DNA of 64,000 nucleotides from an uncultured Rhodospirillaceae bacterium (GCA_964390005.1 CAYMGM010000003.1:14271-78270); one strand, 5' to 3'; positions 33,431-55,977 are shown, numbered from the stretch's first letter. A program made the numbers and translations. Notes: generated from the sequence alone by a model not told the origin.

Positions 33431-34378
33431 ATGACGCTTGATACTTTCCAGCCCGACTTCGCCAACGAACCGCTCCATACGTCCTCGCCGACCGCCCATC
33501 TTCTCGATGAATTGCAGCTCTACGGCTGTCGCCCACAAAGCGACGAGCCCGATCCACGCCCTCTGCCCGAAGCCGATCAGGCCGAGCGGGAGATTGCTTC
33601 CTGCGTTGAAGCCCTCCGGGATCTCATGGCCGACACACCGCTTGAAGAGGATCTCGGCGACGTCCTCTGGTCGTTTGCGTATCTGTTCCATCGCAAGATC
33701 ACCGTCCTCGACCGCGTGCTTGACGACAACGAGCGGGCGCAACGCCGGGCGCAGGAGGAACAGGACGGCTCCGAGGTCAAATCCGTCGAGCTGGAGCGTC
33801 TGACGGCGAAGGGCCTGTCGCTGATCGACCGCCGCAACGCATTCGAGACCTTCCGCGACATCGCCGCAAACCAGCACGAGACGATCACCGGCTCCGCCTG
33901 GCGTCCGCGTACCGGTTCGTTGACGAGCCGCAAGACGCTGACCGCCGCCATGATCGACAGCCGCGATTTCATCGCCGCTAGGCGCCGCGCCGAGATCGAG
34001 CCGCTTTTGCCCGCAGGCCCCCGCATCGCCTTCACGGGCGGTATCGATTGCAACGACACGGCCCGCATCTGGGCCGCGCTCGACAAGGCGCGCGCCAGCC
34101 ATCCCGGCATGGTGCTGATCCACGGCGGATCGCCCAAGGGCGCCGAGCGTATCGCCGCCTGCTGGGCCGATCAACGCAAGGTCCCACAGATTGTGTTCAA
34201 GCCCGACTGGAACCGCCACAAAAACGCCGCGCCCTTCAAGCGCAACGACGCTATGCTCGAGGTTCTGCCCATCGGGGTCATCGTGTTTCCGGGTTCCGGC
34301 ATCTCGCAAAACCTCGCGGACAAGGCGCGGAAGATGGGGATTCCGGTGTGGCGCTTCGATGCGGAGGGCGGCGCATAA
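33431..34378 (+). CDS. DUF2493 (SLOG-like) domain protein
   Basis: C-terminal 'IAFTGGIDCND...MVLIHGGSPKGAERIAACWA' matches DUF2493. Confidence 0.65.
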   Translation: MTLDTFQPDFANEPLHTSSPTAHLLDELQLYGCRPQSDEPDPRPLPEADQAEREIASCVEALRDLMADTPLEEDLGDVLWSFAYLFHRKITVLDRVLDDNERAQRRAQEEQDGSEVKSVELERLTAKGLSLIDRRNAFETFRDIAANQHETITGSAWRPRTGSLTSRKTLTAAMIDSRDFIAARRRAEIEPLLPAGPRIAFTGGIDCNDTARIWAALDKARASHPGMVLIHGGSPKGAERIAACWADQRKVPQIVFKPDWNRHKNAAPFKRNDAMLEVLPIGVIVFPGSGISQNLADKARKMGIPVWRFDAEGGA

Positions 34379-34401
34379 GCGCCGCCGCTACCTCTAATGA
34401 T

Positions 34402-35190
34402 TTAGTGTGGCGCTCTCACAAAACCGTGCCGCCTCTTGTCCAACAATGAAGCATTGGATCTCGTACATGCAGGAAAGCATCCCTTGTCAGAATGGGCGGT
34501 TATTATTCGTCCTGCCTCGTACACACCGAAAATTGTATTGGATGGCAAACAATGTCCATAAGGACCTTGGCGCTTTAACAAGATTGACGAGCTTCCATGT
34601 TCATCATGAGAAGATTCAAACGGAAGCAACAACGGTGGCTTCCTTATCTCTCCGTTCACAGAAAGGGTTTGGGAAAATAGATCGATGATATGATCTTTAA
34701 CGAAATCAATTGCGCCATATCGCATAGCGATGCCCAGAGCGATACTCGATACGCTCATGGTCAGGCTGATCTTGAAATATTTCATGGCCCTTTTTTTCGC
34801 GGCGACAAGCTGCTCGTTGGTTCCATCCAATTTCTTGTGCAAAATAGCATTCTCTCTTATCAAGTTCTCATTTTGAACCTGAATGGAGGTTGTCACGTCG
34901 GTAACGGTTGATATTTTTGATTCGATAACGGCAAGCCTTCTCGAATTTTCAGCTTCGAGGCTGCCTGCCTGTTCTTCCAATTCTTGACGGGCGTCTTGGA
35001 TAAGCCCATCCGTGAATTCTTCATCCGATAGAAGAGCAAGCGCAACAGGAAGGGTTAGTTTGCGGCCGACGATTTCTTCCTGAAACATTTTTAGGGCAAC
35101 GGCGGCGACAGCGTTGTCTTCCTTCTTTTTCGAAGAGAAAACCTCAAGAGAGCCCCGGATAAAATCTTTCCACGATTTTACTATGCCCAT
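34402..35190 (-). CDS. AT-rich coiled-coil protein with C-proximal TM helix; paralog of 43197-44285
   Basis: Shared motif 'KKRAMKYFKISLTMSVSSIALGIAM' vs 'KQRAIRYFKVSVTMGSTGLLIGLIGLA'. Confidence 0.55.
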   Translation of the reverse strand: MGIVKSWKDFIRGSLEVFSSKKKEDNAVAAVALKMFQEEIVGRKLTLPVALALLSDEEFTDGLIQDARQELEEQAGSLEAENSRRLAVIESKISTVTDVTTSIQVQNENLIRENAILHKKLDGTNEQLVAAKKRAMKYFKISLTMSVSSIALGIAMRYGAIDFVKDHIIDLFSQTLSVNGEIRKPPLLLPFESSHDEHGSSSILLKRQGPYGHCLPSNTIFGVYEAGRIITAHSDKGCFPACTRSNASLLDKRRHGFVRAPH

Positions 35191-35270
35191 TTTAAAACCC
35201 CATACCTTGAATATGGGGTCATCTTAATCAGAAATATGAAATATTTTGTTAACTTATAGAATATGTCACC

Positions 35271-35540
35271 TTATTCGACGACAAAATGCCTTAGCCTATT
35301 GTCAAAGCGCTGCTTAAACCTGCTCCGTATCCCCGGAGTTGCCCGATCAACAATCTCGCCTAAGGCATCAACAGCATCCTTTGCCACACGACGCTGCGCG
35401 GGTGAAAGCGCTGCCAAATCTCTTTTTTTAACAGGGGTTCCAGACAACATCCCTCGAACAACGCCAAACGTTTCAGGTGGATACACGACATCCCTTTGAG
35501 GATCCCGGCCTTCCCCATTGTCTCCCGAAACTAATCGCAT
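35271..35540 (-). CDS. Small hypothetical protein (module partner; weak similarity to 44365-44694)
   Basis: 89 aa; N-terminal MRLVSGDNGEGRDPQRDVV vs MLTFGNIIGQGQVPNGAVV. Confidence 0.4.
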   Translation of the reverse strand: MRLVSGDNGEGRDPQRDVVYPPETFGVVRGMLSGTPVKKRDLAALSPAQRRVAKDAVDALGEIVDRATPGIRSRFKQRFDNRLRHFVVE

Positions 35541-35693
35541 GATTATCTCCCTGTCGCTTTAGTAAGCATCTAGTAACTTATAGCATTATTCAGAACCCCA
35601 TGCAAAAACATCTCCTTTAGAAGAAGGTTAGCTCAGCATGGTTGGCAACCCATTAATAACATTTGTTAAAAATGTCTTAAATGATTAAAGGCG

Positions 35694-36068
35694 CTAATGA
35701 GTGAAAGTAAATATCTCGGCTGACGATGTTTTGCGTCGGAGAAACTGGGAAATCGCGTTTGCAAACGGCCTGAGCACCTCGCGACTTATGGCGTGTCGAC
35801 ATTGACTTGGGTGTGACTCGTTGAGGCCGATGGAGCCCGATTGATGGTTGTTTAGATGATTTCGCCATGCCCTAACGCCCCCGTCTTCCCTGAGCGTTTC
35901 GACCACGCGGCACGACCTGCATGAAAAACGCAGCAGTTGTTTTTGAATTACTTCTTGCGTGAAAAATGCTGATTGGATGTCGGCGAGTTTTCTGTTTAAA
36001 ATTGCTCCAACAAAGCTGTCCTTTCCGTCTAGCAAAGGCAGTTCGCGAGGGCCATACCACCTTCCCAT
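35694..36068 (-). CDS. Hypothetical protein (AT-rich module)
   Basis: 124 aa ORF. Confidence 0.3.
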   Translation of the reverse strand: MGRWYGPRELPLLDGKDSFVGAILNRKLADIQSAFFTQEVIQKQLLRFSCRSCRVVETLREDGGVRAWRNHLNNHQSGSIGLNESHPSQCRHAISREVLRPFANAISQFLRRKTSSAEIFTFTH

Positions 36069-36385
36069 GCCCCGTTCATCGCTGCAGAACCATTCCTGCT
36101 TGTCCCCGATTGCGTAAAGCCCGCGTCGTACCGTTCAACCCGCAGGTCGGGAAAATTTCCCCTGCGGCGAGAGGGTGCTCCGCTGCGCTTCGCCCCATTC
36201 GGGTGACAGCAAGCTGTCAACCCTTTGCCGCATTCCTCGCGAAACAAATTTTCCCTCCCTTGCGGGCGCTCCACTGCGTTCCGCCCTTGCGCTGCGCTTC
36301 AGGTGAACAGGCCCGCCTTTGCGGGCTTTTCGCCGGGGTCATCGCAGGGATGGTCCCTGACGACGAACAGCAAAGGAGACAGACA

Positions 36386-36724
36386 ATGGCTATCACTCTC
36401 GGTACCTTCACCAAACAGAACGACGGCAGCTTTGCGGGCGCTCTCAAGACCCTCAACATCACCGCCAACCTCGCCATCGTCCCCGCGACGAAGCAGTCCG
36501 AACAGGCTCCCGACTTCCGCGTCTATGCCGGAAACGGCCACCGTTACGAGGTCGGCGCAGGCTGGAGCCAGGTCGCCAAAACAAGCGGCGAAACCTATCT
36601 GAACCTCAAGATCGCGGCCCCGGAGTTCGGCCCGAACTGGGTTCGCGCACGGCTCGTCAAGCTCGAGACGCCGACCGAAGACGGCGTTACGCATCTGGCC
36701 CTTTGGGAACCGCGCGAGCGCTGA
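36386..36724 (+). CDS. DUF736-family protein
   Basis: 112 aa MAITLGTFTKQNDGSFAGALKTLNITANLAIVPA...PDFRVYAG; RBS aaaggag. Confidence 0.75.
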   Translation: MAITLGTFTKQNDGSFAGALKTLNITANLAIVPATKQSEQAPDFRVYAGNGHRYEVGAGWSQVAKTSGETYLNLKIAAPEFGPNWVRARLVKLETPTEDGVTHLALWEPRER

Positions 36725-37035
36725 TCCCGCCTCGTTCCCAACCCCTCGTCGGAGCGCATCCGGCGAGGGGTTTTTCTGTGTTTACGCCAGCAAGCTATGC
36801 GGAGTCGGCGCAAGCGCCGACGGGCTTTCCGTCTCGACCGGCCCATCTTGCCATCCGGTCTTTGCGCGAGCCTCAATGCTCCGCGGTGCCCCCAATTTTT
36901 TGGCGAAGGGTGCCAAAAAATCGGCTCCCCCGCGTCCCGCCAGAGCGGCGCTGCGCGGCCTTGACCCTCGCCGACCGGATGACCGGGAGACCCGTTCTCG
37001 ACGGGAGAACGGTTCACTCACAAGGAGATCATCCC

Positions 37036-37248
37036 ATGACCGCTTCGTATCGGATCCAGCAGATCGCAGGCAACAATCGCATCGAATATCAGGGCCATTT
37101 TTACGCCGCAGAAGAGCTTGTTGAGACCATCTGGATCGTCAACATGGAGCTTAGAAACGGTCTGCCAAAGCGCGAACGCGTCGCAGCCAAGTGGCAAATC
37201 GCGCGGTACGAGGCGCTTCTCGCCGCCTTGCGGGAGGCGGGGGCATAG
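37036..37248 (+). CDS. Small hypothetical ICE protein
   Basis: 71 aa; RBS aaggag 8 nt upstream of ATG. Confidence 0.5.
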   Translation: MTASYRIQQIAGNNRIEYQGHFYAAEELVETIWIVNMELRNGLPKRERVAAKWQIARYEALLAALREAGA

Positions 37249-37389
37249 CCACCGCTTTCTTGCTTTCCGACCTGTTGGCGCACAAAGGGGGCTCGCTTTC
37301 CGCACCCCCTTGTTTTCGAGCGTCCTCATACGCGCCGTTTCTCGCCATCCTGTGCCCATTCACGTCGAACTGCACCGAAAGGACACGGA

Positions 37390-37626
37390 ATGGACAACGA
37401 AAACACAAGAGCGCTGAAAGCTCGTCAGGGCTGCCCGTTTTTAACCACCAAGGAGGCTGCGCACTACCTTTGCCTTTCCGCCCGCACGCTTGAAAAGATG
37501 CGCCTGATCGGCAACGGCCCGCGCTTTCGCAAGCATGGGCGGTACGTGCGTTATCACATTAACGATCTCGATATCTGGTCGGAAGGAAGACGGCAGGCTT
37601 CGACCTCCGGCGAAGGGGTGCGGTGA
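37390..37626 (+). CDS. Helix-turn-helix (AlpA/excisionase-like) DNA-binding protein
   Basis: 'LTTKEAAHYLCLSARTLEKMRLIGNGPRF'; paralog of 54890-55084. Confidence 0.65.
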   Translation: MDNENTRALKARQGCPFLTTKEAAHYLCLSARTLEKMRLIGNGPRFRKHGRYVRYHINDLDIWSEGRRQASTSGEGVR

Positions 37627-38129
37627 TGCGGAAGGCATCGCTTCGTGCCCTCGGCGCTGCCGGGATCGGGCTTGCCTTGATCGGCTTTGGGGCCTTTATA
37701 GCCCCAGTCCCGTTACTGGTCTGGAACGCCTCGGCAAGCGTGCCGCTTGGCCTTTATCGGCTTGCCTTCGGCGCGCCGGAACGCGGGGATTTTGTGCTCG
37801 TCAGAATGCCGGAAAGCGCCGGAAGGCTGGCGGCGGAACGGGGCTATCTGCCCATTGGCATCCCTCTCGTCAAACACGTCGCGGGCTTTGTCGGAGACTC
37901 TGTTTGCGTCCGGAACGGGGCCGTCGCTATCGATGGAAAGACTGTCGCATACCAGCTTCAAGCAGATCATGCGGGACGTTCTTTGCCGCGTTGGGAGGGG
38001 TGCCGAAGGCTTGAGGCGGGTGAATATTTTCCGCTGGCGGACGCACCGGATTCCTTCGACAGCCGGTATTTTGGGCCCGTGACAAAAGCCGATCTGATCG
38101 GGAGGCTCGTGCCGCTATGGATCGAATGA
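37626..38129 (+). CDS. traF: Conjugative transfer signal peptidase TraF (S26 family)
   Basis: Signal/TM N-terminus and S26 peptidase core. The whole protein matches Ti-type TraF peptidase by my recognition. Confidence 0.8.
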   Translation: MRKASLRALGAAGIGLALIGFGAFIAPVPLLVWNASASVPLGLYRLAFGAPERGDFVLVRMPESAGRLAAERGYLPIGIPLVKHVAGFVGDSVCVRNGAVAIDGKTVAYQLQADHAGRSLPRWEGCRRLEAGEYFPLADAPDSFDSRYFGPVTKADLIGRLVPLWIE

Positions 38130-38746
38130 TCACCCTGCTTTTGCTTGCCGTCGTCCTGTCGACAGGGTCTGCCCATGCCGCAGATAATGCCCCTTGGCAA
38201 ACTTATGTTTCTGAGGCTGCCGAGCGGTTCGCGATCCCCAAAGATTGGGTTCAGGCCGTCATTGCAACCGAGAGCCATGGCGATGCCAAAGCCGTCTCAC
38301 CCAAAGGCGCAATGGGCCTGATGCAGCTCATGCCCGGTACATGGGAGGACCTGCGCGCCGCCCATGCGCTTGCACCTGATCCCTTCGACCCTCAGGCCAA
38401 CATCCTCGCCGGAACGGCTTATCTGAAAACCATGTACGACCGCTTCGGCTACCCGGATATGTTCGCGGCCTACAATACCGGACCGGCCCGTTTCGAAGAC
38501 CATCTCCGCACCAGCAAACCGCTTCCCGACGAAACCAGCGCCTATGCGGCGAGCATCGAAAAGGCGCTTTCCGGAGCGCCCTTTCTTGCGTCGAAAAGCG
38601 CACCGCCACCCTTGCAAATTGCTTCCGGCACAGGGTTGTTTTTTCGGCTTTCGACCGCCCAAAACGCCTCCAAGAGCGAGGCGGATTCCGTCCCGCCGAG
38701 TGATCTTTTCGTGCGGCTTTCTGCACAAAAGGAGGCGTCAAAATGA
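38117..38746 (+). CDS. Lytic transglycosylase (SLT domain)
   Basis: Signal peptide; 'ESHGDAKAVSPKGAMGLMQLMPGTW' catalytic Glu motif. Confidence 0.8.
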   Translation: MDRMITLLLLAVVLSTGSAHAADNAPWQTYVSEAAERFAIPKDWVQAVIATESHGDAKAVSPKGAMGLMQLMPGTWEDLRAAHALAPDPFDPQANILAGTAYLKTMYDRFGYPDMFAAYNTGPARFEDHLRTSKPLPDETSAYAASIEKALSGAPFLASKSAPPPLQIASGTGLFFRLSTAQNASKSEADSVPPSDLFVRLSAQKEASK

Positions 38747-38905
38747 CCCGGGATTCCGCCTCATTTTCAGCGCTCTCGGCCGCTTTTTCTGTCACCCCAT
38801 CCTTGTTGCCGCGCCTCGTGTTCCTCTCGCCATGGCCAAGGTGGGCGCAGGTGAGCGTGGGTAGTCGCAGGCCGGTTCAGGAAAGTCGCGTAAGGCAAGA
38901 TAAAA

Positions 38906-38923
38906 GAGGCCTCGGACCGAGGC
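38906..38923. promoter_or_regulatory. Inverted repeat upstream of relaxase gene (oriT candidate)
   Basis: gaggcctcgg-a-ccgaggc, flanked by aagag/ctctt. Confidence 0.3.
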
Positions 38924-39022
38924 TATCTCTTTGTCTGCACATCTTTTTTTCGGAGGCTTTGGACGCGGCAGAGATTTTCTTGGGCAAGTTTTTGATATTC
39001 CATTGTGATTTTGGAGGCTGTT

Positions 39023-40987
39023 ATGAGCGAGGAAGATTTTGAACCGAGGCTTGGTCGGCTGCGCTCGGGAGGATCGAAGGCAGGCAAACGCTACAGCCAC
39101 CAGGTGCTTGCCGCCGTCAATCGCGCGGGCGGGCGGGCGGTTCGCAAGGGTGGTTTTACTGGCAAGTTCGGACGCGGCGGTGCCATGGGCGCGCTGCTTG
39201 TCAATCGGGATCGTTTTGCGGCGTTCAGGCAGCGTCGTGTGATCGTCAAGGCGCGTATCGTGAAGCTGGCCGGAAAGGGTCTGGACGGGGCGAAAGCCCA
39301 CATGCGTTATCTTCAGCGCGACGGCGTGACCCGCGAGGGCGAAAGGGGCCTGCTTTACACCACCGAAAAAGACTGCGCGGACGGCAAGGCCTTCGTTGAA
39401 CGAGCGAAGGATGACCGGCATCAGTTCCGCTTCATCGTCGCACCGGAAGATGGGCTCGATTACGACGATCTGAAGCCGTTGATCCGCCGTTTGATGATGC
39501 AGATGGAGGAGGATCTCGACAAGTCTCTCGACTGGGTGGCTGTCGATCATTTCAACACCGGGCACCCACATGCCCATATCCTTGTTCGCGGCAAAGACGA
39601 TACGGGGCGCGATCTCGTCATCGCTCCGACCTATATCAGCACCGGCATTCGAGAACGCGCCGCCGAGTTGGTCAGCCTCGATCTAGGTCCCCGCACCGAC
39701 AACGAGATCGAAACTAGATTGAGAGGAGAAGTGGACGCGGAAAGCCTCACAAGCCTCGACAGACATCTTTTGCGCCTGAAGAGCGACGACGGCATGGTAA
39801 AAGCCTTCAGCAAGGATCCTTTCCGCCAAACTCTGCTCATGGGCCGCCTCAAGCATCTGGAGCGCCTCGGCCTTGCCGAAGAAGAACGTTCCGGCTGGAG
39901 GCTTGCGGACGGTTTGGAAGACACGCTGCGCCGCATGGGCGAGCGAGGCGACATCATCAAGACCATGCATCGCGAGATGACGTCCCAAAACATCGCCCAC
40001 AGTCCCGCCGATTACGCGATTTACAATCCCACAGATCTGAACACAAAACCTGTTACTGGCCGCGTCGTGGCGCGTGGCTTGTTGGACGAGCTTAACGACC
40101 GCCACTACCTGATCGTCGATGGTGCGGACGGGTGCGCCCATTACATCGATATTGGCCGTGACGCGGCAACCGAGCCGACCCCGCGCGGCAGCATCGTGCA
40201 CGTGTCGCCAAAAAGCGTGGAGCCAAGGCAGGTGGATCGCACCGTTGCCGAGATCGCGGCGGCGAACGGTGGGCGCTATACAAGAGACCTGCATATGAGG
40301 CACGATCCCCGTGCCACCGAGGCGTTTGTCGAGACCCACATCCGGCGACTGGAAGCGATCCGCCGTGTGACCGGCGGCGTGACCCGTGAGCCGGACGGAA
40401 CATGGACCATCGCCCCGGATCACCTCGACCGCGCCGCCGCCTACGAGCAGGCTCAGGCCAAGACCGCGTCTGTCATCGTGGACAGGCTCTCGAAACTCAC
40501 GCTCGATCAGCAGGTCGGGACAGACGGCGCCACCTGGCTTGATCGCGAGCTTGTCTCCGGCCATCCTGAACAGACGCGCGATTCAGGTTTCGGCCATGAA
40601 TTTCGCGAAGCCACGCAACGCCGCCGACAATGGCTCATCGAACAAGGTCTGGCGCAGGAAACACCCGAACGCATGGTCTATCGTTCCGACATGCTGGCGA
40701 TCCTCCAAAAACGCGAGCTAACCCGCATCGCCGGGCAGCTCTCTGACCAACTCGGCCTTGCTTATGTCGAAACCCGCCCCGGCGACCGCGTGGAAGGTCG
40801 CCTGAGCCGCGCTATTGAACTGGCCAGCGGCAAGGCCGTCGTTATCGAGAAAAGCAAGGAATTTACCCTCGTTCCGTGGCGGCCTGTCCTTGATCGGCAT
40901 ATCGGAAAACAGGTCTCAGGGATCATGCGTAGCGATGGCGGGATCTCGTGGACGATAGGGAAACAGAAGGGAATGGGCGTCGAGTAA
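39023..40987 (+). CDS. Conjugative relaxase (MobA/VirD2-like relaxase domain with DUF3363-type C-terminal region)
   Basis: 654 aa; 3-His motif 'HFNTGHPHAHILV'; GGAGG RBS 5 nt upstream of ATG 39023. Confidence 0.85.
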   Translation: MSEEDFEPRLGRLRSGGSKAGKRYSHQVLAAVNRAGGRAVRKGGFTGKFGRGGAMGALLVNRDRFAAFRQRRVIVKARIVKLAGKGLDGAKAHMRYLQRDGVTREGERGLLYTTEKDCADGKAFVERAKDDRHQFRFIVAPEDGLDYDDLKPLIRRLMMQMEEDLDKSLDWVAVDHFNTGHPHAHILVRGKDDTGRDLVIAPTYISTGIRERAAELVSLDLGPRTDNEIETRLRGEVDAESLTSLDRHLLRLKSDDGMVKAFSKDPFRQTLLMGRLKHLERLGLAEEERSGWRLADGLEDTLRRMGERGDIIKTMHREMTSQNIAHSPADYAIYNPTDLNTKPVTGRVVARGLLDELNDRHYLIVDGADGCAHYIDIGRDAATEPTPRGSIVHVSPKSVEPRQVDRTVAEIAAANGGRYTRDLHMRHDPRATEAFVETHIRRLEAIRRVTGGVTREPDGTWTIAPDHLDRAAAYEQAQAKTASVIVDRLSKLTLDQQVGTDGATWLDRELVSGHPEQTRDSGFGHEFREATQRRRQWLIEQGLAQETPERMVYRSDMLAILQKRELTRIAGQLSDQLGLAYVETRPGDRVEGRLSRAIELASGKAVVIEKSKEFTLVPWRPVLDRHIGKQVSGIMRSDGGISWTIGKQKGMGVE

Positions 40988-41074
40988 TTCGAACAGGGAT
41001 CCGTGAGGATGGATGATCGCACATAAAGGCTATAACCAATTTATCGCCCCTGCAGGACAATCGTTCCGTGTATT

Positions 41075-43138
41075 TTGATGTGTAGAATGAGGCCCATGAC
41101 CCCAACCAAACTCCTGATCGGCCAGATTATCATCGTCTTCGCCATCGTCGTCCTCGGTGTATGGACGTCCACGCAATGGTGTGCGGAGATGCTTGGTTAT
41201 CAAGCGCAGCTTGGCACACCGTGGGGTGTTCTGTTCGGCTGGCCGTGTTACGCACCGTGGAAGCTATTCGATTGGTGGTACCACTACGAGGCCTATGCGC
41301 CTCATGTATTCGACAAGGCTGGGATGCTCGCGGGGGCGAGCGGCTTTATGGGTTGTGCGGCGGCGATTATAGGATCGCTATGGCGGGCGCGGCAGAGCCG
41401 GTTGGTTACGACCTATGGCTCATCGCGCTGGGCAACGGCCATTGAAGTCAAACGGGCCGGGTTATTCCATCCGTCCGGCGTGTTCCTTGGCCGGTTTGGC
41501 GCCGACTATCTCCGCCATAACGGTCCCGAACACGTTATGGCCTTCGCGCCGACCCGTTCAGGCAAGGGTGTCGGGCTTGTTGTGCCGACGCTTTTGTCGT
41601 GGACCGGCTCTGCCGTCATTCACGACATCAAGGGCGAGAACTGGCTTCTGACGGCGGGCTGGCGTTCGACCTTCTCGCATACGCTTTTGTTCAACCCGAC
41701 CGATCCGCGTTCGGCGCGTTACAATCCGCTCCTGGAAGTGCGCAAAGGGCCGGACGAAGTGCGTGACGTGCAAAACATCGCCGATATTCTGGTAGATCCG
41801 GAAGGCGCTCTCGAAAAGCGCAACCATTGGGAAAAGACGAGCCATAGTTTGCTTGTCGGGGCCATCTTGCATGTGCTTTATGCCGAAGAGGAAAAAACGC
41901 TCGCTCGCGTCGCGACATTTCTGTCCGACCCGCAGCGGTCCTTCGCCCATACGTTGCGCCGGATGATGTCCACCAACCATCTCGGTACGCCGGAGAACCC
42001 AAAGGTTCACCCCGTCGTGGCCTCGGCGGCGCGGGAGGTTCTGAACAAGTCGGAAAACGAACGCTCCGGCGTTCTCTCCACAGCCATGTCGTTTCTTGGC
42101 CTCTATCGCGACCCGACCGTGGCGATGACAACCTCGGCCTGTGACTGGCGGATTGCCGACCTGATGGATGCCGAACACCCGGTTTCGCTTTACCTCGTCA
42201 TCCCGCCGTCTGATATCTCGCGCACGAAACCGCTGGTGCGTCTTGTTTTGAACCAAATCGGGCGTCGGCTCACGGAACGGCTGGAAGGCGACCCGAAGAA
42301 AAGCCGCAAGCATCAATTGCTGATGATGTTGGACGAGTTTCCCGCGCTTGGGCGATTGGATTTCTTCGAGACGGCACTCGCTTTCATGGCCGGTTATGGC
42401 ATCCGCGCATATTTGATCGCCCAAAGCCTCAACCAAATTTCCAAAGCCTACGGCGAAAACAACGCTATCCTCGACAATTGCCATGTTCGCATCGCGTTTT
42501 CGTCCAACGATGAGCGGACAGCCAAACGCATTTCTGACGCGCTGGGTACAGCAACGGAGCTACGCGCACAACGCAATTATGCAGGACATCGTCTTGCCCC
42601 TTGGCTTTCCCATGTCATGGTTTCGCGTCAGGAAACAGCCCGTCCGTTGTTGACGCCCGGCGAGGTGATGCAATTGCCGCCTTCGGACGAGCTTGTTCTC
42701 GTCTCAGGCCTCCTTCCGATCCGGGCGAAGAAGCTTCGCTATTACAAGGACAGGAACTTCACAGACCGCGTACTGTCTGCCCCCGAACTTTCCGAAGGCG
42801 TTTATGCCGATAAGCCCACCTCGCGTCCTGACGACTGGAGCGGGCAGGTGCGTGGCATTGATGATCGCCTGATTATTGCTGCGGACGAAAACGGAGATGC
42901 CAACGTCTTTTTCGATGAAGGTGGCCCCCAGCAGCAACGCCATCCTGGGTTGCCAGAAGACCTAGGCGCGAAAGTGCCTGAGCCTGACCAAGGCAACTCG
43001 TTCAAAAACGCCGACGACGACCAAGACAGCATCGCCGACAAACAGGTCATGGATAAGCTTTCCGTCGCAACGCGCGTATATGGCCTTGATGAAGGCGTTG
43101 GACCCGACAAGGAGGAAGACTTGTTGCCAGGGTTCTGA
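41075..43138 (+). CDS. traG: Type IV coupling protein TraG/VirD4
   Basis: 687 aa; N-terminal TM helices, Walker A 'PTRSGKGVGLVVPT', Walker B 'LLMMLDEF'. Confidence 0.9.
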   Translation: MMCRMRPMTPTKLLIGQIIIVFAIVVLGVWTSTQWCAEMLGYQAQLGTPWGVLFGWPCYAPWKLFDWWYHYEAYAPHVFDKAGMLAGASGFMGCAAAIIGSLWRARQSRLVTTYGSSRWATAIEVKRAGLFHPSGVFLGRFGADYLRHNGPEHVMAFAPTRSGKGVGLVVPTLLSWTGSAVIHDIKGENWLLTAGWRSTFSHTLLFNPTDPRSARYNPLLEVRKGPDEVRDVQNIADILVDPEGALEKRNHWEKTSHSLLVGAILHVLYAEEEKTLARVATFLSDPQRSFAHTLRRMMSTNHLGTPENPKVHPVVASAAREVLNKSENERSGVLSTAMSFLGLYRDPTVAMTTSACDWRIADLMDAEHPVSLYLVIPPSDISRTKPLVRLVLNQIGRRLTERLEGDPKKSRKHQLLMMLDEFPALGRLDFFETALAFMAGYGIRAYLIAQSLNQISKAYGENNAILDNCHVRIAFSSNDERTAKRISDALGTATELRAQRNYAGHRLAPWLSHVMVSRQETARPLLTPGEVMQLPPSDELVLVSGLLPIRAKKLRYYKDRNFTDRVLSAPELSEGVYADKPTSRPDDWSGQVRGIDDRLIIAADENGDANVFFDEGGPQQQRHPGLPEDLGAKVPEPDQGNSFKNADDDQDSIADKQVMDKLSVATRVYGLDEGVGPDKEEDLLPGF

Positions 43139-43196
43139 ACTCATGAGAACCACAAAAAATGCTCGCTTTTTGATAAGCGGAAAAATGCCGTGATAT

Positions 43197-44285
43197 CTAC
43201 TGGTTGGGGAAGAAGTGATTTCTTACACGTCTACGAGAAACGGGCAAACATGGACGCATCTCGATGGTGATATTAGGGGTATCCGGTAAAGATATCCTTT
43301 TGCCGTCTTCGAGAAGTTCGCGCATATTTTTGTTTGTGATAGGATCAAAGGGGCCGCTTTGTCCTTTCAGTAAAGGGATGACCTTTTCAAAAGAGGGGGC
43401 CTCGATACCCTTTTTTTGATCTTTCTGCTGACCGTGGCTGAACGGTACAGCCGTTTGAGGTAAATGAGACGACTGCGTTTCTGTGGTCGTTGATGATGGG
43501 CTTTCCTTTGCTGTTCTCGAAAGTGCTTTTTGCTGTTCTTCGGACGCCTTTTTCCTTTCGAAAGGAAAAACAAGGCCAAAACGAGCAGCGAGGCCTATAA
43601 GGCCGATAAGTAGGCCTGTGGATCCCATTGTGACAGAAACTTTGAAGTATCTAATCGCACGCTGTTTTGCTTTTTCAAGTTTGCTGTTTGCGCTTTTGGT
43701 TTCTTGATGCGCCTCATCGAGTCTTCTTTCCATGTTCTCGAGCTGCTGTTGCATCGACTCTCGATATTTAGAAAAAGCTTCTGTGGTTTTCTTCGTTTCT
43801 TTCCGCGAGGCTTTAAGTTCCGCTCTAAGCTTTAATGTTTGCTTCTCTCCATCCAGAAGCATTTTCTTCAAAATGCCTTGTTCGCCCAAGGATGATGTTG
43901 TTTTCGTTTCGATGATTTTAACGAGCGCGTGGATTTCGTTTAGGACGGTTGCACGAAATTCTTTCTCTATTTCCGTGCGAGCAGCAGTCTTAGCTTTTTC
44001 GATAGCGTCTGAAACTAAGGCTTTACGGTCTGCTTCGTCTACTTGCTGGAGATCGGCGCGAACTTTGTCGATAAAATCGCAAATGGCCTTGTCGTTTTGA
44101 AGATCGACCTTGGCCTTTTTGAAGGAAGCAGGGCTTTTTTCTGCAAGAGAGAGGAAAAGGGCCAGCGCATACGCTGCATCAGGATCATTTATTTTATCGC
44201 CTTGCCGAAATTTCCGTACGGCATCACTTAAAAAGTGATCAGATAAAATAGATTTGGCCATGAAAACTCTCTTGTTAAAATACAA
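43197..44285 (-). CDS. AT-rich coiled-coil / TM protein; paralog of 34402-35190
   Basis: 362 aa; shared 'RAIRYFKVSVTMGSTGLLIGLIGLA' motif. Confidence 0.55.
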   Translation of the reverse strand: MYFNKRVFMAKSILSDHFLSDAVRKFRQGDKINDPDAAYALALFLSLAEKSPASFKKAKVDLQNDKAICDFIDKVRADLQQVDEADRKALVSDAIEKAKTAARTEIEKEFRATVLNEIHALVKIIETKTTSSLGEQGILKKMLLDGEKQTLKLRAELKASRKETKKTTEAFSKYRESMQQQLENMERRLDEAHQETKSANSKLEKAKQRAIRYFKVSVTMGSTGLLIGLIGLAARFGLVFPFERKKASEEQQKALSRTAKESPSSTTTETQSSHLPQTAVPFSHGQQKDQKKGIEAPSFEKVIPLLKGQSGPFDPITNKNMRELLEDGKRISLPDTPNITIEMRPCLPVSRRRVRNHFFPNQ

Positions 44286-44364
44286 GAAGATATTAACCGG
44301 CGTTAGTTAGGGGATCTTTAATTTTTGAGAGGGGAGATAAAAAAATCAATCCAGCAATAATGGA

Positions 44365-44694
44365 TTAAGGCTGGGCGGCTTCCGTGCATGAGCCTCGAAC
44401 CTGATTTTGAAATAACTCCAACCGACGGTCCCGTCTGGTTGGCAGGGCCGCAGCTTGGTCTTCAATGACTTTGGCTACGGTTGAATCAATGCAACCGCCG
44501 ACTTTGTCCATGAATCGTCCCGTTGCTTGCTCTGCATAAAGGCGAGCAATTTCCTTGTCATCGCCAAGCTGACCGCCAAGCAACTGTTCGCTCGTGCTTT
44601 TGCCTGCATTTGGCTTTATGGCGTTGTTCTTCGGCATAACGACGGCTCCGTTCGGGACTTGTCCTTGTCCAATAATATTACCGAACGTTAGCAT
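44365..44694 (-). CDS. Small hypothetical protein (module partner)
   Basis: 109 aa. Confidence 0.4.
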   Translation of the reverse strand: MLTFGNIIGQGQVPNGAVVMPKNNAIKPNAGKSTSEQLLGGQLGDDKEIARLYAEQATGRFMDKVGGCIDSTVAKVIEDQAAALPTRRDRRLELFQNQVRGSCTEAAQP

Positions 44695-44744
44695 TTTATA
44701 GCCGCCTTTGCAAAATTATTAACCTATTTCACCATGTTCCCATG

Positions 44745-45008
44745 TTAGCTGCAGGTCATTGATAACTCATTAATAATTTGTCTATAAGGGGGCGCAAAAT
44801 GCAAAAGCTGGATCGAGGAAAGTATTTTAAGGCCCTTTAGGGCCCACTCAACGGCATTTGACGTTTTCAGTTCTCCCAAGTGATAGGGAGCAACTTTGAA
44901 TTCCGCATTCCATCGCGCGTGATCGTACATAAGGGCCATAAGAGGATTCCGGCATTTAGCGGATGATCGTTCCGACAAGGAGCGATCAGATGCAAGCCAA
45001 GAAGACAC
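44745..45008 (-). CDS. Hypothetical small protein (possibly frameshifted; alternative frame 44867-45067)
   Basis: Two overlapping small ORFs in different frames. Confidence 0.25.
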   Translation of the reverse strand: MSSWLASDRSLSERSSAKCRNPLMALMYDHARWNAEFKVAPYHLGELKTSNAVEWALKGLKILSSIQLLHFAPPYRQIINELSMTCS

Positions 45009-45406
45009 GACACCAGTTCCTGCTTGAAGCGGGCCTCAGCGAGAAACTCGAGAGGCTTTGCCGCCATCCGGGGACGAAGAAATCAGACCTCGTCGCCAAG
45101 GCCGTTACGGCCTTTCTCGAACGGCGCGGCGAGAGCGAGCTGGATCAGCGCTATGCCAAACGGCTTGATCGGCTTTCACGCGATATCGCGCATGTGCGCC
45201 GCGACGTTGAGACGGCGCTTGAAAGCCTCGCGCTTTTTATCCGCTTCGTCATCACGCTGAACGCCCACACGCCCGTGCCGGACAAGGCGACGCAGGCGGT
45301 GGCCAACGAACGCTTTCTCAAATTCATCGATCAGGTCGGTCGCCAGATCGCGGGCGGCAGATCCTCCTTCGGTTCCAAAGACGAGAACAAGGAGGCGCAA
45401 GCATGA
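44990..45406 (+). CDS. CopG/ribbon-helix-helix regulator preceding trb operon
   Basis: 'KKTRHQFLLEAGLSEKLERL...SDLVAKAVTAFLERR' RHH; stop overlaps trbB start. Confidence 0.65.
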   Translation: MQAKKTRHQFLLEAGLSEKLERLCRHPGTKKSDLVAKAVTAFLERRGESELDQRYAKRLDRLSRDIAHVRRDVETALESLALFIRFVITLNAHTPVPDKATQAVANERFLKFIDQVGRQIAGGRSSFGSKDENKEAQA

Positions 45407-46958: not shown

Positions 46959-49378
46959 GTCTCGCCGAATATCGCTCCCAAGCCGACAGACTGGCCGATT
47001 TCCTGCCATGGGCCGCGCTTGTGGGGCCGGGCATTGTTCTTAACAAGGATGGCAGCGTTCAGCGGACGTTTTTGTTTCGGGGCCCCGATCTCGAAAGCGC
47101 CTCCGAAGGCGAACTGGTCGGGCTTTGCGCCCGCGCGAACAACGCGCTCAAGCGGCTGGGTTCCGGCTGGGCGCTCTTTTTCGAGGCGGAGCGCGCCGGG
47201 GCGCAGCATTATCCGACCTCAAACTTTCCGGACGCCGCCTCATGGCTCGTGGACGAGGAACGCCGTATTTCTTTCGAGGAAGGCCATCAGGGCAAGCATT
47301 TCGAGAGCCGGTATTATCTGACGCTTCTCTTTATGCCGCCGCCCGATGCGCAGGCCCGCACCGAAAAGGCACTTTTGGATTCCGGCCGGGAGGAAGAAGG
47401 ACGGGACTGGCGGCGGGAGCTTGGCCGGTTCCGGGAAGAAACCGACCGGATGCTGGACCTTCTGTCCGGCTTCCTGCCCGAGATCCGCGCGCTTGATGAC
47501 GCGGAAACGCTGACCTATCTGCACGGAACCGTCTCGACCAAACGCCATCCCGTGGCCGTGCCGGAGACGCCGATGTATCTCGACGGCGTTCTGGCCGATA
47601 CGTCCTTCACGGGCGGGCTTGAGCCCATGCTGGGCGCGGCGCATCTGCGCACGCTTACCATTCTCGGCTTTCCGAACGCGACGTGCCCCGGCATTCTCGA
47701 TGCGTTGAACCATCAGGATTTCGGGTATCGCTGGGTCACGCGCTTCATCCCGCTCGACAAGACCGAGGCGACGAAGGTCCTGACACGCTTACGCCGTCAA
47801 TGGTTCGCCAAACGCAAATCTGTCACGGCCATTCTGCGCGAGGTGATGACGAGCGAATCTTCGACGCTTGTGGACAGCGACGCCGACAACAAGGCGCGGG
47901 ATGCCGATGCGGCCCTTCAGGCCCTTGGCGGCGATCATGTCGGTTTCGGCTATTTCACCGCCAGCGTCACGGTTTGGGATAAGGACTGGCAACAGGCGGA
48001 GGACAAGGCCCGCGCGGTCGAGCGTATTATCAACAATATCGGCTTCACCTGTATCCGCGAAAGCGTGAACGCCGTCGAGGCGTGGCTCGGCAGCCTGCCG
48101 GGGCATGTCTATGCCAATATCCGGCAGCCGTTGGTCCACACCTTGAACCTTGCCCATCTCATGCCGCTTTCGGCGCTTTGGGCGGGGCCGGAGCGCAACG
48201 CGCATCTCGACGGGCCGCCACTCTTTTACGCCGAAACCTCCGGCTCGACGCCGTTTCGCTTTTCGACCCATGTGGGCGATGTCGGGCATATGCTGGTCGT
48301 GGGCCCCACTGGGGCGGGTAAATCCGTCCTTTTGTCCCTGATCGCTCTTCAGTTTCGTCGCTATCAAGGGGCGCAGGTTTATATCTTCGACAAGGGGCGC
48401 TCGGCCCGCGCCGCGACCTTGGCCATGGGCGGCGAGCATTACGCCCTCGGCGCGGACGGGGCGCTGTCCTTTCAGCCGCTTCGGAACATCGACGATCCCG
48501 CCACGCGCAGTTGGGCTGCCGAATGGATCGGCGGGTTGCTTGCGCATGAGCAGGTTCAATTGACGCCCGATGTCAAGGAAGCCGTCTGGTCGGCGCTCAA
48601 CAATCTGGCGGGCGCGCCGCCGGAAGAACGCACGCTGACGGGACTTTCTGTCCTTGTTCAGGCCAATCCGCTCAAGGCCGCGCTTCAGCCCTACACGCTG
48701 GACGGGCCTTTCGGGCGCTTGCTTGATGCCGCTGAAGATCGGCTTGCCTTGTCGGATGTGCAATGTTTCGAGACCGAAGACTTGATGCATGAGTCCGGCG
48801 CCGTTCTGCCCGTTCTGACCTACCTGTTCCACCGGCTTGAGGAACGTTTCGATGGAAGGCCGACCCTGCTCATCCTTGATGAGGCTTGGGTCTATCTCGA
48901 CAATCCGCTTTTTGCCGCCCGCATCCGGGAGTGGTTGAAGGTTCTCAGGAAACGCAACGTCTCGGTTCTGTTCGCGACGCAGTCTCTGGCCGACATCGCG
49001 GGTTCCTCTATCGCGCCCGCGCTCATCGAATCCTGCCCGCAACGTCTCTTCCTGCCCAACGACCGGGCCGTCGAGCCGCAGGCGCGGACGGCCTATGAAC
49101 GTTTCGGCCTGAACGAGCGGCAAATCGAGCTGATCGCCCGCGCGACGCCCAAACGGCACTATTACCTGCAATCGCGGCGCGGCAACCGCCTGTTCGAACT
49201 CGGTCTCGGCCCCGTGGCGCTGGCCCTCTGCGGCGCGTCCGATGCCACCGCGCAGAAGCTGATCGACAGTCTTCTTGCGGAACACGGCCCCGAAAACTTC
49301 GCAGCCGCGTTCCTGAAGGCGCGAGGCCTCGATTGGGCCGCCGGGCTTGTGCACGATTTTGGAGGAGGCAAGCCATGA
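46952..49378 (+). CDS. trbE: TrbE (VirB4 ATPase)
   Basis: Start MLSLAEYRS overlapping trbD; Walker A 'VVGPTGAGKS', 'LILDEAW'. Confidence 0.9.
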   Translation: MLSLAEYRSQADRLADFLPWAALVGPGIVLNKDGSVQRTFLFRGPDLESASEGELVGLCARANNALKRLGSGWALFFEAERAGAQHYPTSNFPDAASWLVDEERRISFEEGHQGKHFESRYYLTLLFMPPPDAQARTEKALLDSGREEEGRDWRRELGRFREETDRMLDLLSGFLPEIRALDDAETLTYLHGTVSTKRHPVAVPETPMYLDGVLADTSFTGGLEPMLGAAHLRTLTILGFPNATCPGILDALNHQDFGYRWVTRFIPLDKTEATKVLTRLRRQWFAKRKSVTAILREVMTSESSTLVDSDADNKARDADAALQALGGDHVGFGYFTASVTVWDKDWQQAEDKARAVERIINNIGFTCIRESVNAVEAWLGSLPGHVYANIRQPLVHTLNLAHLMPLSALWAGPERNAHLDGPPLFYAETSGSTPFRFSTHVGDVGHMLVVGPTGAGKSVLLSLIALQFRRYQGAQVYIFDKGRSARAATLAMGGEHYALGADGALSFQPLRNIDDPATRSWAAEWIGGLLAHEQVQLTPDVKEAVWSALNNLAGAPPEERTLTGLSVLVQANPLKAALQPYTLDGPFGRLLDAAEDRLALSDVQCFETEDLMHESGAVLPVLTYLFHRLEERFDGRPTLLILDEAWVYLDNPLFAARIREWLKVLRKRNVSVLFATQSLADIAGSSIAPALIESCPQRLFLPNDRAVEPQARTAYERFGLNERQIELIARATPKRHYYLQSRRGNRLFELGLGPVALALCGASDATAQKLIDSLLAEHGPENFAAAFLKARGLDWAAGLVHDFGGGKP

Positions 49379-50091
49379 AACGCAGGACATTACGCCTTCT
49401 TGTCCTCGCGGCAACGCTTGGGATAGGGCTGGTCTCCACCCCAGCGCGAGCGCTCATCGTCTATGACCCATCGAACTACAGCCAGAATGTGCTGACGGCG
49501 GCACGGGCGCTTGAGCAGATCAATAACCAGATCCTCTCGCTCCAAAATCAGGCCGTCATGCTGCAAAACATGGCGCGGAACCTCCAAAGTCTCGATTATT
49601 CGTCGCTGGGACAGATGAATGGGGCGTTGACCCGCATCGGTGCGCTTATGACGCAGGCCGACGGACTCAGCTACAACCTCGCGCAGTTGGAAAGCCAATG
49701 GGAGACGCAATATCCGGACTCTTATGGCGCGAGCGTTAGCACAAACGACACGGCCGCTGCCGCGCAGCAACGTTGGCACAGCGCCATGAGCGCCTACCGG
49801 CAGACGATGCAGGTGCAGGCGCAGATTGTCGATAACGTCCAGAACGATCAGCCCCTTTTGACCGACCTTGTGAACCAGAGCCAAGGCGCGGCGGGCGCGT
49901 TGCAAGCGCAGCAGGCGACAAATCAGCTTTTGGCCCTTTGCGCCAAGCAACAAATGCAAATTCAGGAACTGATGGCGGCCCAGTACCGCGCCGAGGCCGA
50001 AGACGCAGCCCGCAAGGCGCAGGCCGAGGAAGCGGCGCGCGCGACCACGCAGCGTTTTCTGGGCACCGACACGGCCTATACGGGGGAGTGA
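49375..50091 (+). CDS. trbJ: TrbJ
   Basis: Signal peptide then 'LIVYDPSNYSQN' coiled-coil protein; ATGA overlap with trbE. Confidence 0.85.
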   Translation: MKRRTLRLLVLAATLGIGLVSTPARALIVYDPSNYSQNVLTAARALEQINNQILSLQNQAVMLQNMARNLQSLDYSSLGQMNGALTRIGALMTQADGLSYNLAQLESQWETQYPDSYGASVSTNDTAAAAQQRWHSAMSAYRQTMQVQAQIVDNVQNDQPLLTDLVNQSQGAAGALQAQQATNQLLALCAKQQMQIQELMAAQYRAEAEDAARKAQAEEAARATTQRFLGTDTAYTGE

Positions 50092-50097
50092 GGCATC

Positions 50098-51375
50098 ATG
50101 AACGACCTTGGCATCATCGACAGTTTCATGACGACCTTCAGTCGCTATATCGACAGCGGCTTCGGGCTCCTGTCCGGCGACGTGGCGTTTCTGTCCACCA
50201 CCCTGATCGGCATCGACATCACGCTGGCCGGTCTTCTCTGGGCCTTTGGCGGCGAGAACAACGTGATCGCGCGGCTGATCCGGAAAGTCCTTTATGTCGG
50301 CGCATTCGCCTTCATTTTGAACAATTTTCAGAACCTTGCCACCATTGTTTTCAACTCCTTTTCCACTCTGGGGCTCAAGGCCTCCGGCAGCGGGATGAGC
50401 GCGGCGGACCTCCTGAAGCCCGGCGTGATCGCGGGAACGGGCTATCAAGCCGCGCATCCGCTTCTGGTCGAGGTCGGCCATTTGGTCGGGTTTCCGGAAA
50501 TCTTCAGCAACGCACTGACCGTGTTCGTTTTGCTGATCGCATGGCTTCTGGTCGTCTTCGCCTTCTTCATTCTGGCGATCCAGCTTTTTATCACGGTTCT
50601 GGAGTTCAAGCTCACGACGCTCGCGGGCTTCGTGCTTGTGCCGTTTGCCCTCTGGAACAAGACAGCCTTTCTGGCCGAGCGGGTTCTGGGGAACGTCATC
50701 TCTTCCGGCATCAAGATGATGGTGCTCGCCGTCGTTGTCGGCATCGGCTCCACGCTGTTTTCAAGCTTCACGGGAAGCCTGCAAGGACAGGATGCCACGC
50801 TGGCGGCCGCCATGTCGCAGGTGCTGGGGGCCTTGACGCTTCTGGGGCTCGGGATCTTCGGCCCCGGCATCGCGGCAGGCCTTGTCTCCGGTGCGCCGCA
50901 ACTGGGTGCAGGCGCCGCGCTTGGCACCACAGGTGCCGCCGTAGGCGCCGTCGCCCTGACAGGGATCACGGCGGTCGGCGCGGCGCGTATGACTGGAGGC
51001 GCGACTTTGGGCGCGATCCGCGCTGGAACTTCTCTGGGATCGGCCGCAACCGCTTCCTATCAAGCCGCGCAGGCCGCTTCGGGCGAAACAGGCGCTTCAG
51101 GCGTGGCGGCAGGAATGGGCGGCGTGGCCCGCGCTGCAGCCTCCTCCATCCGGCAGAGCGTCAGGAGCGGAAAGACTGAGACAGCTACGGACAGCACCAC
51201 AGGTGAAGCCGCTTCCACACCATCCGAGCCCGCATTCTCCGCGCCCGACTGGGCCAAACGCCTACGCACCCAGCAAGCCGCGCAGGCCAGTCGTCATGCC
51301 GTAAGCCAGGCCATCAAAGATGGCGACAGGCCGGGGCACGGCGCGACACCATCCCTCCATCAAAAGGAAGATTGA
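50098..51375 (+). CDS. trbL: TrbL (VirB6-like)
   Basis: Polytopic membrane protein with Gly/Ala-rich C-terminus. Confidence 0.85.
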   Translation: MNDLGIIDSFMTTFSRYIDSGFGLLSGDVAFLSTTLIGIDITLAGLLWAFGGENNVIARLIRKVLYVGAFAFILNNFQNLATIVFNSFSTLGLKASGSGMSAADLLKPGVIAGTGYQAAHPLLVEVGHLVGFPEIFSNALTVFVLLIAWLLVVFAFFILAIQLFITVLEFKLTTLAGFVLVPFALWNKTAFLAERVLGNVISSGIKMMVLAVVVGIGSTLFSSFTGSLQGQDATLAAAMSQVLGALTLLGLGIFGPGIAAGLVSGAPQLGAGAALGTTGAAVGAVALTGITAVGAARMTGGATLGAIRAGTSLGSAATASYQAAQAASGETGASGVAAGMGGVARAAASSIRQSVRSGKTETATDSTTGEAASTPSEPAFSAPDWAKRLRTQQAAQASRHAVSQAIKDGDRPGHGATPSLHQKED

Positions 51376-54256: not shown

Positions 54257-54259
54257 TCC

Positions 54260-54574
54260 ATGCTGAAACTTCCCAAACTGCCCGACCGCACGCCGATCAA
54301 GATCACAGTCACCGTGAACGCAGCCCTCAATCAAGCGCTTCACGGCTACGCCGCCCTTTATCGCGCGACTTATGGCGAGATGGCCTCCGTGCCCGATCTG
54401 ATCCCGTTCATGCTGGACTGTTTCCTGAAAAGCGATCCTGCCTTCGCCAAGGCCTTGAAGGAAGGTTTGCTGGAAAACGAACAGGAAAAGCCCCTCGGGC
54501 GCACAGGGCGTAAACGTGGCGAAACCCCCGCAATCCAGAACGCCCCACCCACATTGCAACCGAAGGAGGCCTGA
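54260..54574 (+). CDS. DUF2274-family protein
   Basis: 104 aa immediately after trbI, as in related ICEs. Confidence 0.7.
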   Translation: MLKLPKLPDRTPIKITVTVNAALNQALHGYAALYRATYGEMASVPDLIPFMLDCFLKSDPAFAKALKEGLLENEQEKPLGRTGRKRGETPAIQNAPPTLQPKEA

Positions 54575-54575
54575 T

Positions 54576-55958: not shown

Positions 55959-55977
55959 CTCTCGCCGAGCGGGGAAC

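Follow-up and report, generated by a model that had tools for sequence, protein, structure and literature searches.

Two AT-rich islands with the same gene order

We analysed a 64,000-nucleotide (nt) stretch of DNA (the window) from an uncultured Rhodospirillaceae bacterium (GCA_964390005.1, CAYMGM010000003.1:14271-78270). It carries an integrative and conjugative element (ICE) of the ICEMlSymR7A type, and this ICE contains two AT-rich islands. Each island holds a two-gene operon on the minus strand, against the direction of the backbone, in which a gene for a small protein (A) is followed by a gene for a larger, predicted membrane protein (B). We found that the two cassettes are very probably separately acquired members of one undescribed two-gene cassette family. 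A reading of the same DNA made without database searches (the sequence-only reading) had picked out both modules as AT-rich and antisense to the backbone, and both properties were borne out. The islands and their genes (open reading frames, ORFs) are the following.

34379-36071, no strand: island 1, an AT-rich variable segment between the DUF2493/YspA gene (33431-34378, plus strand) and the DUF736 upstream region, from the GC profile
34402-35190, minus strand: B1, a 262-amino-acid (aa) predicted bitopic membrane protein of subfamily M1; ORF, with an identical protein (P0002) in NCBI and Logan
34708-34803, minus strand: juxtamembrane motif AAKKRAMKYFK and Ser/Gly/Ala-rich hydrophobic helix of B1, residues 130-161
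35271-35540, minus strand: A1, an 89-aa small soluble protein, a shortened M1-type A; ORF with a GGAG Shine–Dalgarno sequence, called in public annotation
35700-36071, no strand: remainder of island 1, holding an uncalled 124-aa ORF (35694-36068) with no family match
43139-44962, no strand: island 2, an AT-rich insertion between traG (stop at 43138) and an msi031-like ribbon–helix–helix (RHH) gene (start at 44963), from the GC profile
43197-44261, minus strand: B2, a 354-aa (from ATG) predicted bitopic membrane protein of subfamily M2; ORF, public annotation and AlphaFold2
43251-43388, minus strand: small beta-rich C-terminal domain of B2, predicted periplasmic, residues 292-337; AlphaFold2, kept across the family
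43569-43670, minus strand: motif AKQRAIRYFK and hydrophobic helix of B2, residues 198-231
44365-44694, minus strand: A2, a 109-aa small soluble protein, M2-type; ORF, public annotation

The GC content of the islands was about 0.45, compared with about 0.62 for the backbone. Measured in 200-nt windows, it was 0.40-0.52 inside the islands and 0.60-0.70 in the flanks, and both cassettes lay about 16 GC points below the backbone. Both islands occupy cargo sites of the ICE, the DUF2493/DUF736 and traG/RHH–trbB junctions. Blastn homology to a related ICE, L003, restarted at position 36072, exactly at the end of island 1, so the outer limits previously drawn around the modules enclose a real variable segment. 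At the island-1 site L003 carries different cargo (L003 positions 16836-18080), which encodes unrelated 140-aa and 262-aa proteins, is oriented against the backbone and had no Pfam or PADLOC match. The DUF2493/DUF736 junction contains no annotated gene in Methylocystis pMpar-1, and in Mesorhizobium huakuii plasmid p_2 it contains a Phd-type toxin–antitoxin (TA) module and hypothetical genes. Island 2 was found in L003 at a collinear position, and in a Sphingobium plasmid traG directly abuts copG–trbB. Relative to related elements both islands are therefore cargo, as had been proposed. We also observed that L001, a metagenomic contig of another sample with an identical B1, starts at about window position 36077, 6 nt from the 36071/36072 boundary, and this contig break hints at strain-level cargo variation at the island-1 junction.

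Around the islands we found no convincing terminal inverted or direct repeats, the best being a 19-nt pair with 74% complementarity at island 2, and neither island contained a recombinase ORF. An insertion sequence, a miniature inverted-repeat transposable element and an integron-cassette unit were rejected on these grounds. Rfam gave no match within the islands, and the window held no cassette copy beyond the two. The ORFs at 35694-36068, 44745-45008 and 44867-45067 are absent as genes from public annotation; the backbone RHH gene begins inside the last of these, with an overlap at 44963-45067.

Proteins, relatives and selection

B1 and B2 share a basic, invariant-type motif (KKRAMKYFKISLTM in B1 and KQRAIRYFKVSVTM in B2; family consensus A(K/R)(K/Q)RA(I/M)(K/R)YFK), each followed by a hydrophobic segment, as the sequence-only reading had noticed. 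BLASTP aligned the two proteins over 63 aa with E=6e-10, and tblastx between the modules returned a single segment, that of the motif and transmembrane (TM) region. By blastn the modules showed no DNA similarity, two short upstream boxes apart. Paralogy at the DNA level was rejected on these results. Family alignments kept the N-terminal aromatic positions F10 and F18 and a C-terminal mini-domain with the consensus (G)PYGxxDPxTxxxMxxLLxxGxTxxLPxD...RP. Because the homology of B1 and B2 reaches the N terminus and this mini-domain, their similarity is not merely compositional and, judged by sequence, the two are true homologues. Ahead of the B1 start there is a mini-ORF, ATG GGG TTT TAA, at which the relative P0003 reads MGFFMAII.

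The small proteins A1 and A2 correspond by position alone. Homology between them was not detected by BLASTP (E=6.8), by hhalign (probability 0.7%) or by the hidden Markov models (HMMs) of the two subfamilies, which missed each other; the N-terminal pattern M-L--G-N-G-G---P----VV that had been proposed as common to both can be read in them, but it does not stand as evidence of relationship. Both are real genes, given that they are called in public annotation and that A2 has a ratio of nonsynonymous to synonymous substitution rates (dN/dS) of 0.28. A1 is shorter than its relatives (89 versus 115-153 aa), and the A6 profile, whose alignment includes A1, scored it at 8.9e-27. A2 is 76% identical to its orthologue in L003 and is also related to the A protein of L010. 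A Pfam scan of 10 A-type proteins returned no relevant match.

AlphaFold2 modelling of B2 with the family alignment (mean predicted local distance difference test score, pLDDT, of 69) gave a helical bundle (residues 8-55), long helices (57-121 and 128-227, with the motif and hydrophobic segment at the end of the latter), a disordered region (229-291) and a small beta-rich domain (292-337, pLDDT about 75-82). When the C-terminal domain was modelled by itself, its block pLDDT was 85-89. The long helices are Pro-free and charged. Their heptad periodicity was weak, with a nominal p of about 0.02 in one of three segments tested; the earlier label of coiled-coil protein is thus not established, a coiled coil being plausible but unproven. 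In M1-type and intermediate members, 3-5 Lys or Arg residues fall in the 15 residues before the hydrophobic helix versus 0-2 after it, and a reading of the B sequences revealed no N-terminal signal sequence or lipobox. We infer that B is a bitopic inner-membrane protein with its N terminus in the cytoplasm and its C terminus in the periplasm. A pair of Cys residues nine positions apart in the C-terminal domain is all-or-none (both in P0004, P0006 and P0008; neither in P0003 and P0005), which fits an extracytoplasmic disulfide. Many residues of the hydrophobic helix are Ser, Gly or Ala, placed at i/i+4 intervals (small-xxx-small), and small residues so spaced often go with helix–helix packing.

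Foldseek was run with full-length B2 on PDB and BFVD and with the C-terminal domain on PDB; nothing reached E<=0.001, and the best match had E=0.31. Several known designs were considered for the pair and rejected. A tail-anchored or SNARE-like coiled-coil protein does not fit the roughly 100-125 residues that follow the helix or the weak heptads. In an i-spanin (Rz-type) reading, the B helices would be misplaced because they precede the TM segment; there is also no lipoprotein partner and no significant PHROG match. The A proteins (82-153 aa) lack the sigma domains of an extracytoplasmic-function sigma/anti-sigma pair, and fold matches to phage sigma factors had E >2.

The family is very rare. 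The C-terminal half of B was used for an exhaustive profile search of 1.84 billion representative proteins, which gave 13 matches, about eight of them true members with profile E-values of 1e-14 to 1e-63. Word-indexed searches recovered only P0001, P0003 and P0004 besides the query, and a further search with the family alignment added nothing among the best 8,000 candidates. GTDB representative genomes yielded one locus (L009) and JGI metagenomes one (contig L004), and no B relative was found in IMG/VR. Searches of A and B against Pfam, NCBIfam, PADLOC, PHROGs and PDB sequence profiles returned only noise along the charged helices. The B/A family is an undescribed alphaproteobacterial two-gene cassette with no described relative.

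All recovered loci share one layout, in which a small gene (82-153 aa) precedes B on the same strand, with a spacer of about 45-120 nt. The relatives sit in alphaproteobacterial or unassigned contigs and, L003 apart, among chromosomal housekeeping genes: surA/lptGF, RNase D–lptC–lptA–lptB, mgtE, PPDK, deoC/dinB and surE/DUF1491. At seven of the eight relatives' loci that were measured, the cassette lay 10-13 GC points under its flanks (the exception was L012). The A–B cassette turns up as an AT-rich islet in further genomes too and so has moved horizontally; the term mobile module is not supported, the terminal repeats and recombinase that would be its signatures being missing.

Two side observations concern individual members. 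P0003 (L004, Ga0326727_10000046) and P0015 (L015, Ga0326727_10000025) are divergent members from the same metagenome, each on a contig of >500 kb; the former adjoins lptG/lptF and the latter lptC–lptA–lptB, which are lipopolysaccharide-transport genes. In P0004 (L007, 1183-1452 and 1260-2015) the N terminus lies in another frame than the rest (HMM match on the overlapping ORF, E=1.7e-7), which reflects either a frameshifted copy or an assembly error.

The two cassettes of the window have separate histories. B1 is 53% identical to the chromosomal protein P0003, and B2 is 74% identical to P0001 of ICE L003 and 35% identical to the chromosomal P0009. B1 and B2 themselves are 17% identical and belong to different subfamilies (M1 and M2). 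This low identity, together with a closer relative outside ICEs for each copy, points to separate acquisitions and not to duplication within the ICE. L003 has cassette 2 and not cassette 1. Compared with the L003 orthologues, dN/dS was 0.17 for B2 (versus P0001) and, as noted, 0.28 for A2. Within B2 it was 0.08-0.14 in the cytoplasmic part and helix, 0.40 in the linker and 0.23 in the C-terminal domain; with no region above 0.40, both genes are under purifying selection. The synonymous divergence (dS) of cassette 2 (B2, 0.82; A2, 0.54) resembles that of the backbone (0.36-1.10), so cassette 2 predates the split of the two ICEs.

These results bear on how the two copies arose. The sequence-only reading had described duplicated, divergent cargo and suggested a mobile module under diversifying selection; taken as an origin, this would be a recent duplication inside the ICE. 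Such an origin would account for the presence in one element of two same-family copies that are AT-rich and run against the backbone. We consider it highly improbable, given the divergence of the copies and their closer outside relatives, the lack of inter-module DNA similarity, terminal repeats or mobility genes, and dN/dS values of 0.17-0.28 that nowhere exceed 0.40. That the modules are chance ORFs in AT-rich junk, alike only in their charged helices, is scarcely credible: library matches along the helices (SMC, DndD and tape-measure models) are indeed compositional noise, but the motif, helix and C-terminal domain are kept in about eight independent proteins, selection is purifying and the genes are called in public annotations.

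Upstream boxes and the host element

Two short elements lie upstream of gene A in both cassettes.

35642-35656, minus strand: box 1 of module 1, TTAATGGGTTGCCAA, a conserved upstream element and candidate promoter or operator
35597-35607, minus strand: box 2 of module 1, TTTTGCATGGG, remnant of a conserved ribosome-binding-site region
44759-44773, minus strand: box 1 of module 2, TTAATGAGTTATCAA, beginning 79 nt upstream of the A2 start codon
44705-44715, minus strand: box 2 of module 2, TTTTGCAAAGG, ribosome-binding-site region of gene A

Box 1 is TTAATGGGTTATCAACC-like and contains the palindrome GGTT-ATC-AACC; box 2 (TAATTnTTTTGCAAGGATAGC..AAAATG) spans the ribosome-binding site. The box 1 pattern occurs exactly twice in the window, both times on the minus strand, versus 0.01 occurrences expected by chance. 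It was also found once each in L003, L004, L009 and L012, starting 79-89 nt upstream of gene A. Both boxes are common to the two window cassettes, L003, L004 and L009. Box 1 is accompanied by a variant box 2 in L012; L007 has a box 2 variant only, and L011 has box 2, the position of box 1 being lost beyond the contig end. The simplest reading, which we infer from this conservation, is that the boxes are a promoter and/or operator and a conserved translation-initiation region. Such a cis-element, common to cassettes whose proteins have diverged to <20% identity, is new and was unexpected.

In cassette 1 the ancestral start by box 2 now reads ATG-CTA-TAA, and A1 begins 45 nt further downstream. 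The leader of this cassette (35541-35610) looks decayed, with a start codon followed by a stop, then a second mini-ORF and a shortened A1. Gene A leaders showed no conserved RNA structure (0 pairs) and no Rfam match. On inspection, CtrA, sigma-54 and EcfG promoter readings of the boxes were rejected because spacings and key bases vary across loci. The idea that the leader is far better conserved than coding DNA was also dropped, the window and L003 being 84% identical in the leader versus 80-82% in coding DNA. IMG/VR contained 48 viral matches to the box 1 16-mer, which by a rough estimate are probably due to chance.

Pfam matches and annotation place the core genes of an ICEMlSymR7A-type element in the window. 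In order they are DUF736 (36386-36724), an RdfS-like HTH_17 protein, TraF (Peptidase_S26), an SLT transglycosylase, a DUF3363 relaxase, TraG (T4SS-DNA_transf), TrbB (T2SSE), TrbE and TrbL. Genes for ParB-like, Toprim and DUF2493/YspA proteins stand ahead of the DUF736-to-trb series. Orthologues in L003 carry the same annotation. This arrangement matches the 17-gene backbone known from Mesorhizobium ICEs, with the core set rdfS–traF–msi107(SLT)–rlxS(DUF3363), traG, msi031(RHH)–trbBCDEJLFGI and the DUF736 gene (PMC8627217). In the window trbK is missing between trbJ (49333-50091) and trbL (50098-51375), which are 6 nt apart, and no Rep_3 or DUF2840 gene lies between rdfS and traF (37390-38129), which follow each other directly. 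The absence of trbK combined with that of Rep_3/DUF2840 has been described for the symbiosis ICEs and not for other Mesorhizobium ICEs (PMC8627217).

A tyrosine integrase gene (57317-58507, minus strand) adjoins tRNA-Ala(CGC) (58672-58747, minus strand), and this site is probably the attachment end of the ICE. No repeat of at least 13 nt of the tRNA region was found elsewhere in the window, so the second end of the ICE is probably beyond the window. We observed a defence-type cluster (13955-23066) upstream of the transfer genes. It contains a DrmD-like SNF2 helicase (13955-16891; PADLOC E=1.5e-207), a type III methyltransferase (18203-19888) and a ResIII/endonuclease protein (20412-23066), and also two AT-rich ORFs within 16867-18206, one of which is weakly PDC-M19A-like. 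A RovC_DNA-bd/Trans_reg_dom transcription-factor-like protein (23681-24520) is encoded where a region of 52% GC passes into backbone of 62% GC; the left part of the window, at about 52% GC, is compositionally apart from the transfer backbone of about 62%. Further left are a gene for a DUF4238 protein (11625-12809, minus strand; AT-rich, GC 0.44) and another AT-rich ORF at 680-1408. Between the trb genes and the integrase (53387-56892) lie three ORFs with no Pfam or PADLOC match, one of 461 aa on the minus strand and two of 206 aa and 304 aa in a stretch of 48-50% GC.

What the cassette might do

For the functional class we tentatively propose an accessory, conflict-type envelope module, a reading that we hold with less than even confidence. 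A role in conflict is suggested by the hot-spot sites, the AT-richness of the cassette in nearly every host, the rarity and patchiness of the family, the presence of two divergent copies, the defence cargo of the ICE (the DrmD-like helicase, type III methyltransferase and ResIII protein) and the TA module at the same site in a relative. The cassette would have a promoter of its own, and its transcription would converge with that of the ICE gene upstream. B may self-associate through its small-xxx-small helix, and B and A would act at the envelope as a self-contained accessory module. Its role in conflict could be that of a barrier to incoming DNA, or of a membrane effector, abortive or addiction-type, that is partnered by A. 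A more specific form of this proposal is doubtful. It would be a new envelope-spanning conflict system, in which the cytoplasmic helical domain of B detects an invader or the condition of the ICE, the juxtamembrane and TM segment gates the membrane or blocks DNA entry, and the conserved promoter boxes control it, providing exclusion or defence in a trbK-less ICE lineage.

Several observations weigh against a conflict module at the envelope. We found no homology or fold match of the proteins to any exclusion, defence or toxin family, and no enzymatic or nucleic-acid-sensing domain was detectable. PADLOC-DB v2 gave only weak charged-helix matches, to DndD (E=8.6e-4, 16 bits) and JetC (E about 0.03), and none for B1, A1 or A2; PHROGs gave no significant match. 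Most relatives lie between housekeeping genes and not in defence islands, and no relationship was detected between M1-type and M2-type A proteins. M2-type B proteins have basic residues after the helix as well as before it, and the hydropathy of the helix is only moderate (1.3-2.2 Kyte–Doolittle units over 19 residues), so membrane insertion is a prediction. Among known systems, RexB, phage Sie proteins, HK97 gp15-type proteins and CBASS/Pycsar TM effectors resemble the cassette as small mobile-element operons with a membrane-protein effector. The cassette differs from them in having no significant PADLOC or PHROG match, no sensor or enzymatic partner and no phage association, IMG/VR having yielded no relative.

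One possible, though unlikely, alternative is that B is a membrane scaffold or signalling protein outside any conflict, such as a bitopic regulator, or a tether in the envelope, with a cytoplasmic domain that binds either a partner or DNA (box 1, for example), and that the cassette is ordinary cargo useful to the host. In its predicted topology and domain order B resembles the bitopic scaffolds RodZ and PodJ, as these are generally known. Relatives adjoin the envelope genes surA/lptGF and lptC–lptA–lptB, purifying selection on the cytoplasmic part is strong (dN/dS 0.08-0.14), and the conserved upstream boxes suggest control by a conserved host factor. However, B has no Pfam match, including to RodZ_C, which does match a true RodZ in L015. 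RodZ and PodJ are core proteins, whereas the cassette is accessory, AT-rich and extremely rare and patchy. Its third-position GC content (GC3) is far under that of the host, no neighbouring gene is kept across loci, and the placement of two divergent copies at hot spots of one ICE is not what ordinary cargo of this kind would lead one to expect.

An addiction module of TA type, in which B would be a pore-forming or membrane-perturbing toxin restrained by a labile A so as to stabilise the ICE or the islet, appears somewhat less probable still. Like a type II TA system, the cassette comprises two genes in one operon, of which the first is the smaller and evolves faster (dN/dS 0.28 versus 0.17), occurs in multiple divergent copies as AT-rich islets, and uses a hot spot that holds a Phd-type TA module in M. 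huakuii p_2. Box 1 is in part a palindrome (GGTTATCAACC), a frequent trait of TA operators, and the helix has a glycine-zipper-like small-xxx-small pattern. By contrast, A and B match no antitoxin or toxin family, and type II TA membership was rejected because neither protein of either cassette has a Pfam, NCBIfam or PADLOC match. B consists mostly of a conserved cytoplasmic domain and is far larger than the membrane toxins that are generally known; A has no DNA-binding fold, and the two genes lie about 80 nt apart without overlapping. Box 1 is also conserved across the subfamilies while the A proteins are unrelated, which makes A a poor fit for an operator-binding autorepressor.

We regard it as quite improbable that the cassettes are entry-exclusion determinants, with B in the inner membrane or periplasm of the recipient blocking DNA from a donor with a related type IV secretion system in place of TrbK. 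This explanation has the appeal that the ICE lacks trbK, trbJ and trbL being 6 nt apart, and that ICEMlSymR7A-type symbiosis ICEs are reported without trbK (PMC8627217). Moreover, cassette 2, located between traG and the trb operon, has been retained since the split of the two ICEs, and B is a predicted membrane protein with a periplasmic domain. In these respects B is like RP4 TrbK, pKM101 Eex, SXT Eex and F TraS, which are encoded by conjugative elements and located in the envelope with a part beyond the inner membrane. That class, however, comprises small (about 60-150 aa) lipoproteins or polytopic inner-membrane proteins usually encoded between trbJ and trbL, and B does not belong to it. 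B is unrelated in sequence and fold, has no lipobox or signal peptide and, at 262-354 aa, is 4-5 times the size of TrbK-type proteins. Known Eex proteins have neither its long cytoplasmic helical domain nor a partner gene, and the cassettes stand outside the trb operon. Closer relatives of B1 and B2 occur at non-conjugative chromosomal sites, in contigs with no conjugation genes nearby, and L003 retains cassette 2 and not cassette 1.

The family is rare, with about 10 clusters in public databases, and its general importance is limited accordingly. Irrespective of function, the finding defines two cargo hot spots of the ICE backbone, a testable bitopic architecture and a conserved cis-element. 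Should the cassette turn out to work in exclusion, defence or addiction, it would bring in a protein family without relatives in current defence or TA catalogues, and it could then explain how trbK-less ICEMlSymR7A-type elements guard their hosts from re-entry or phage.

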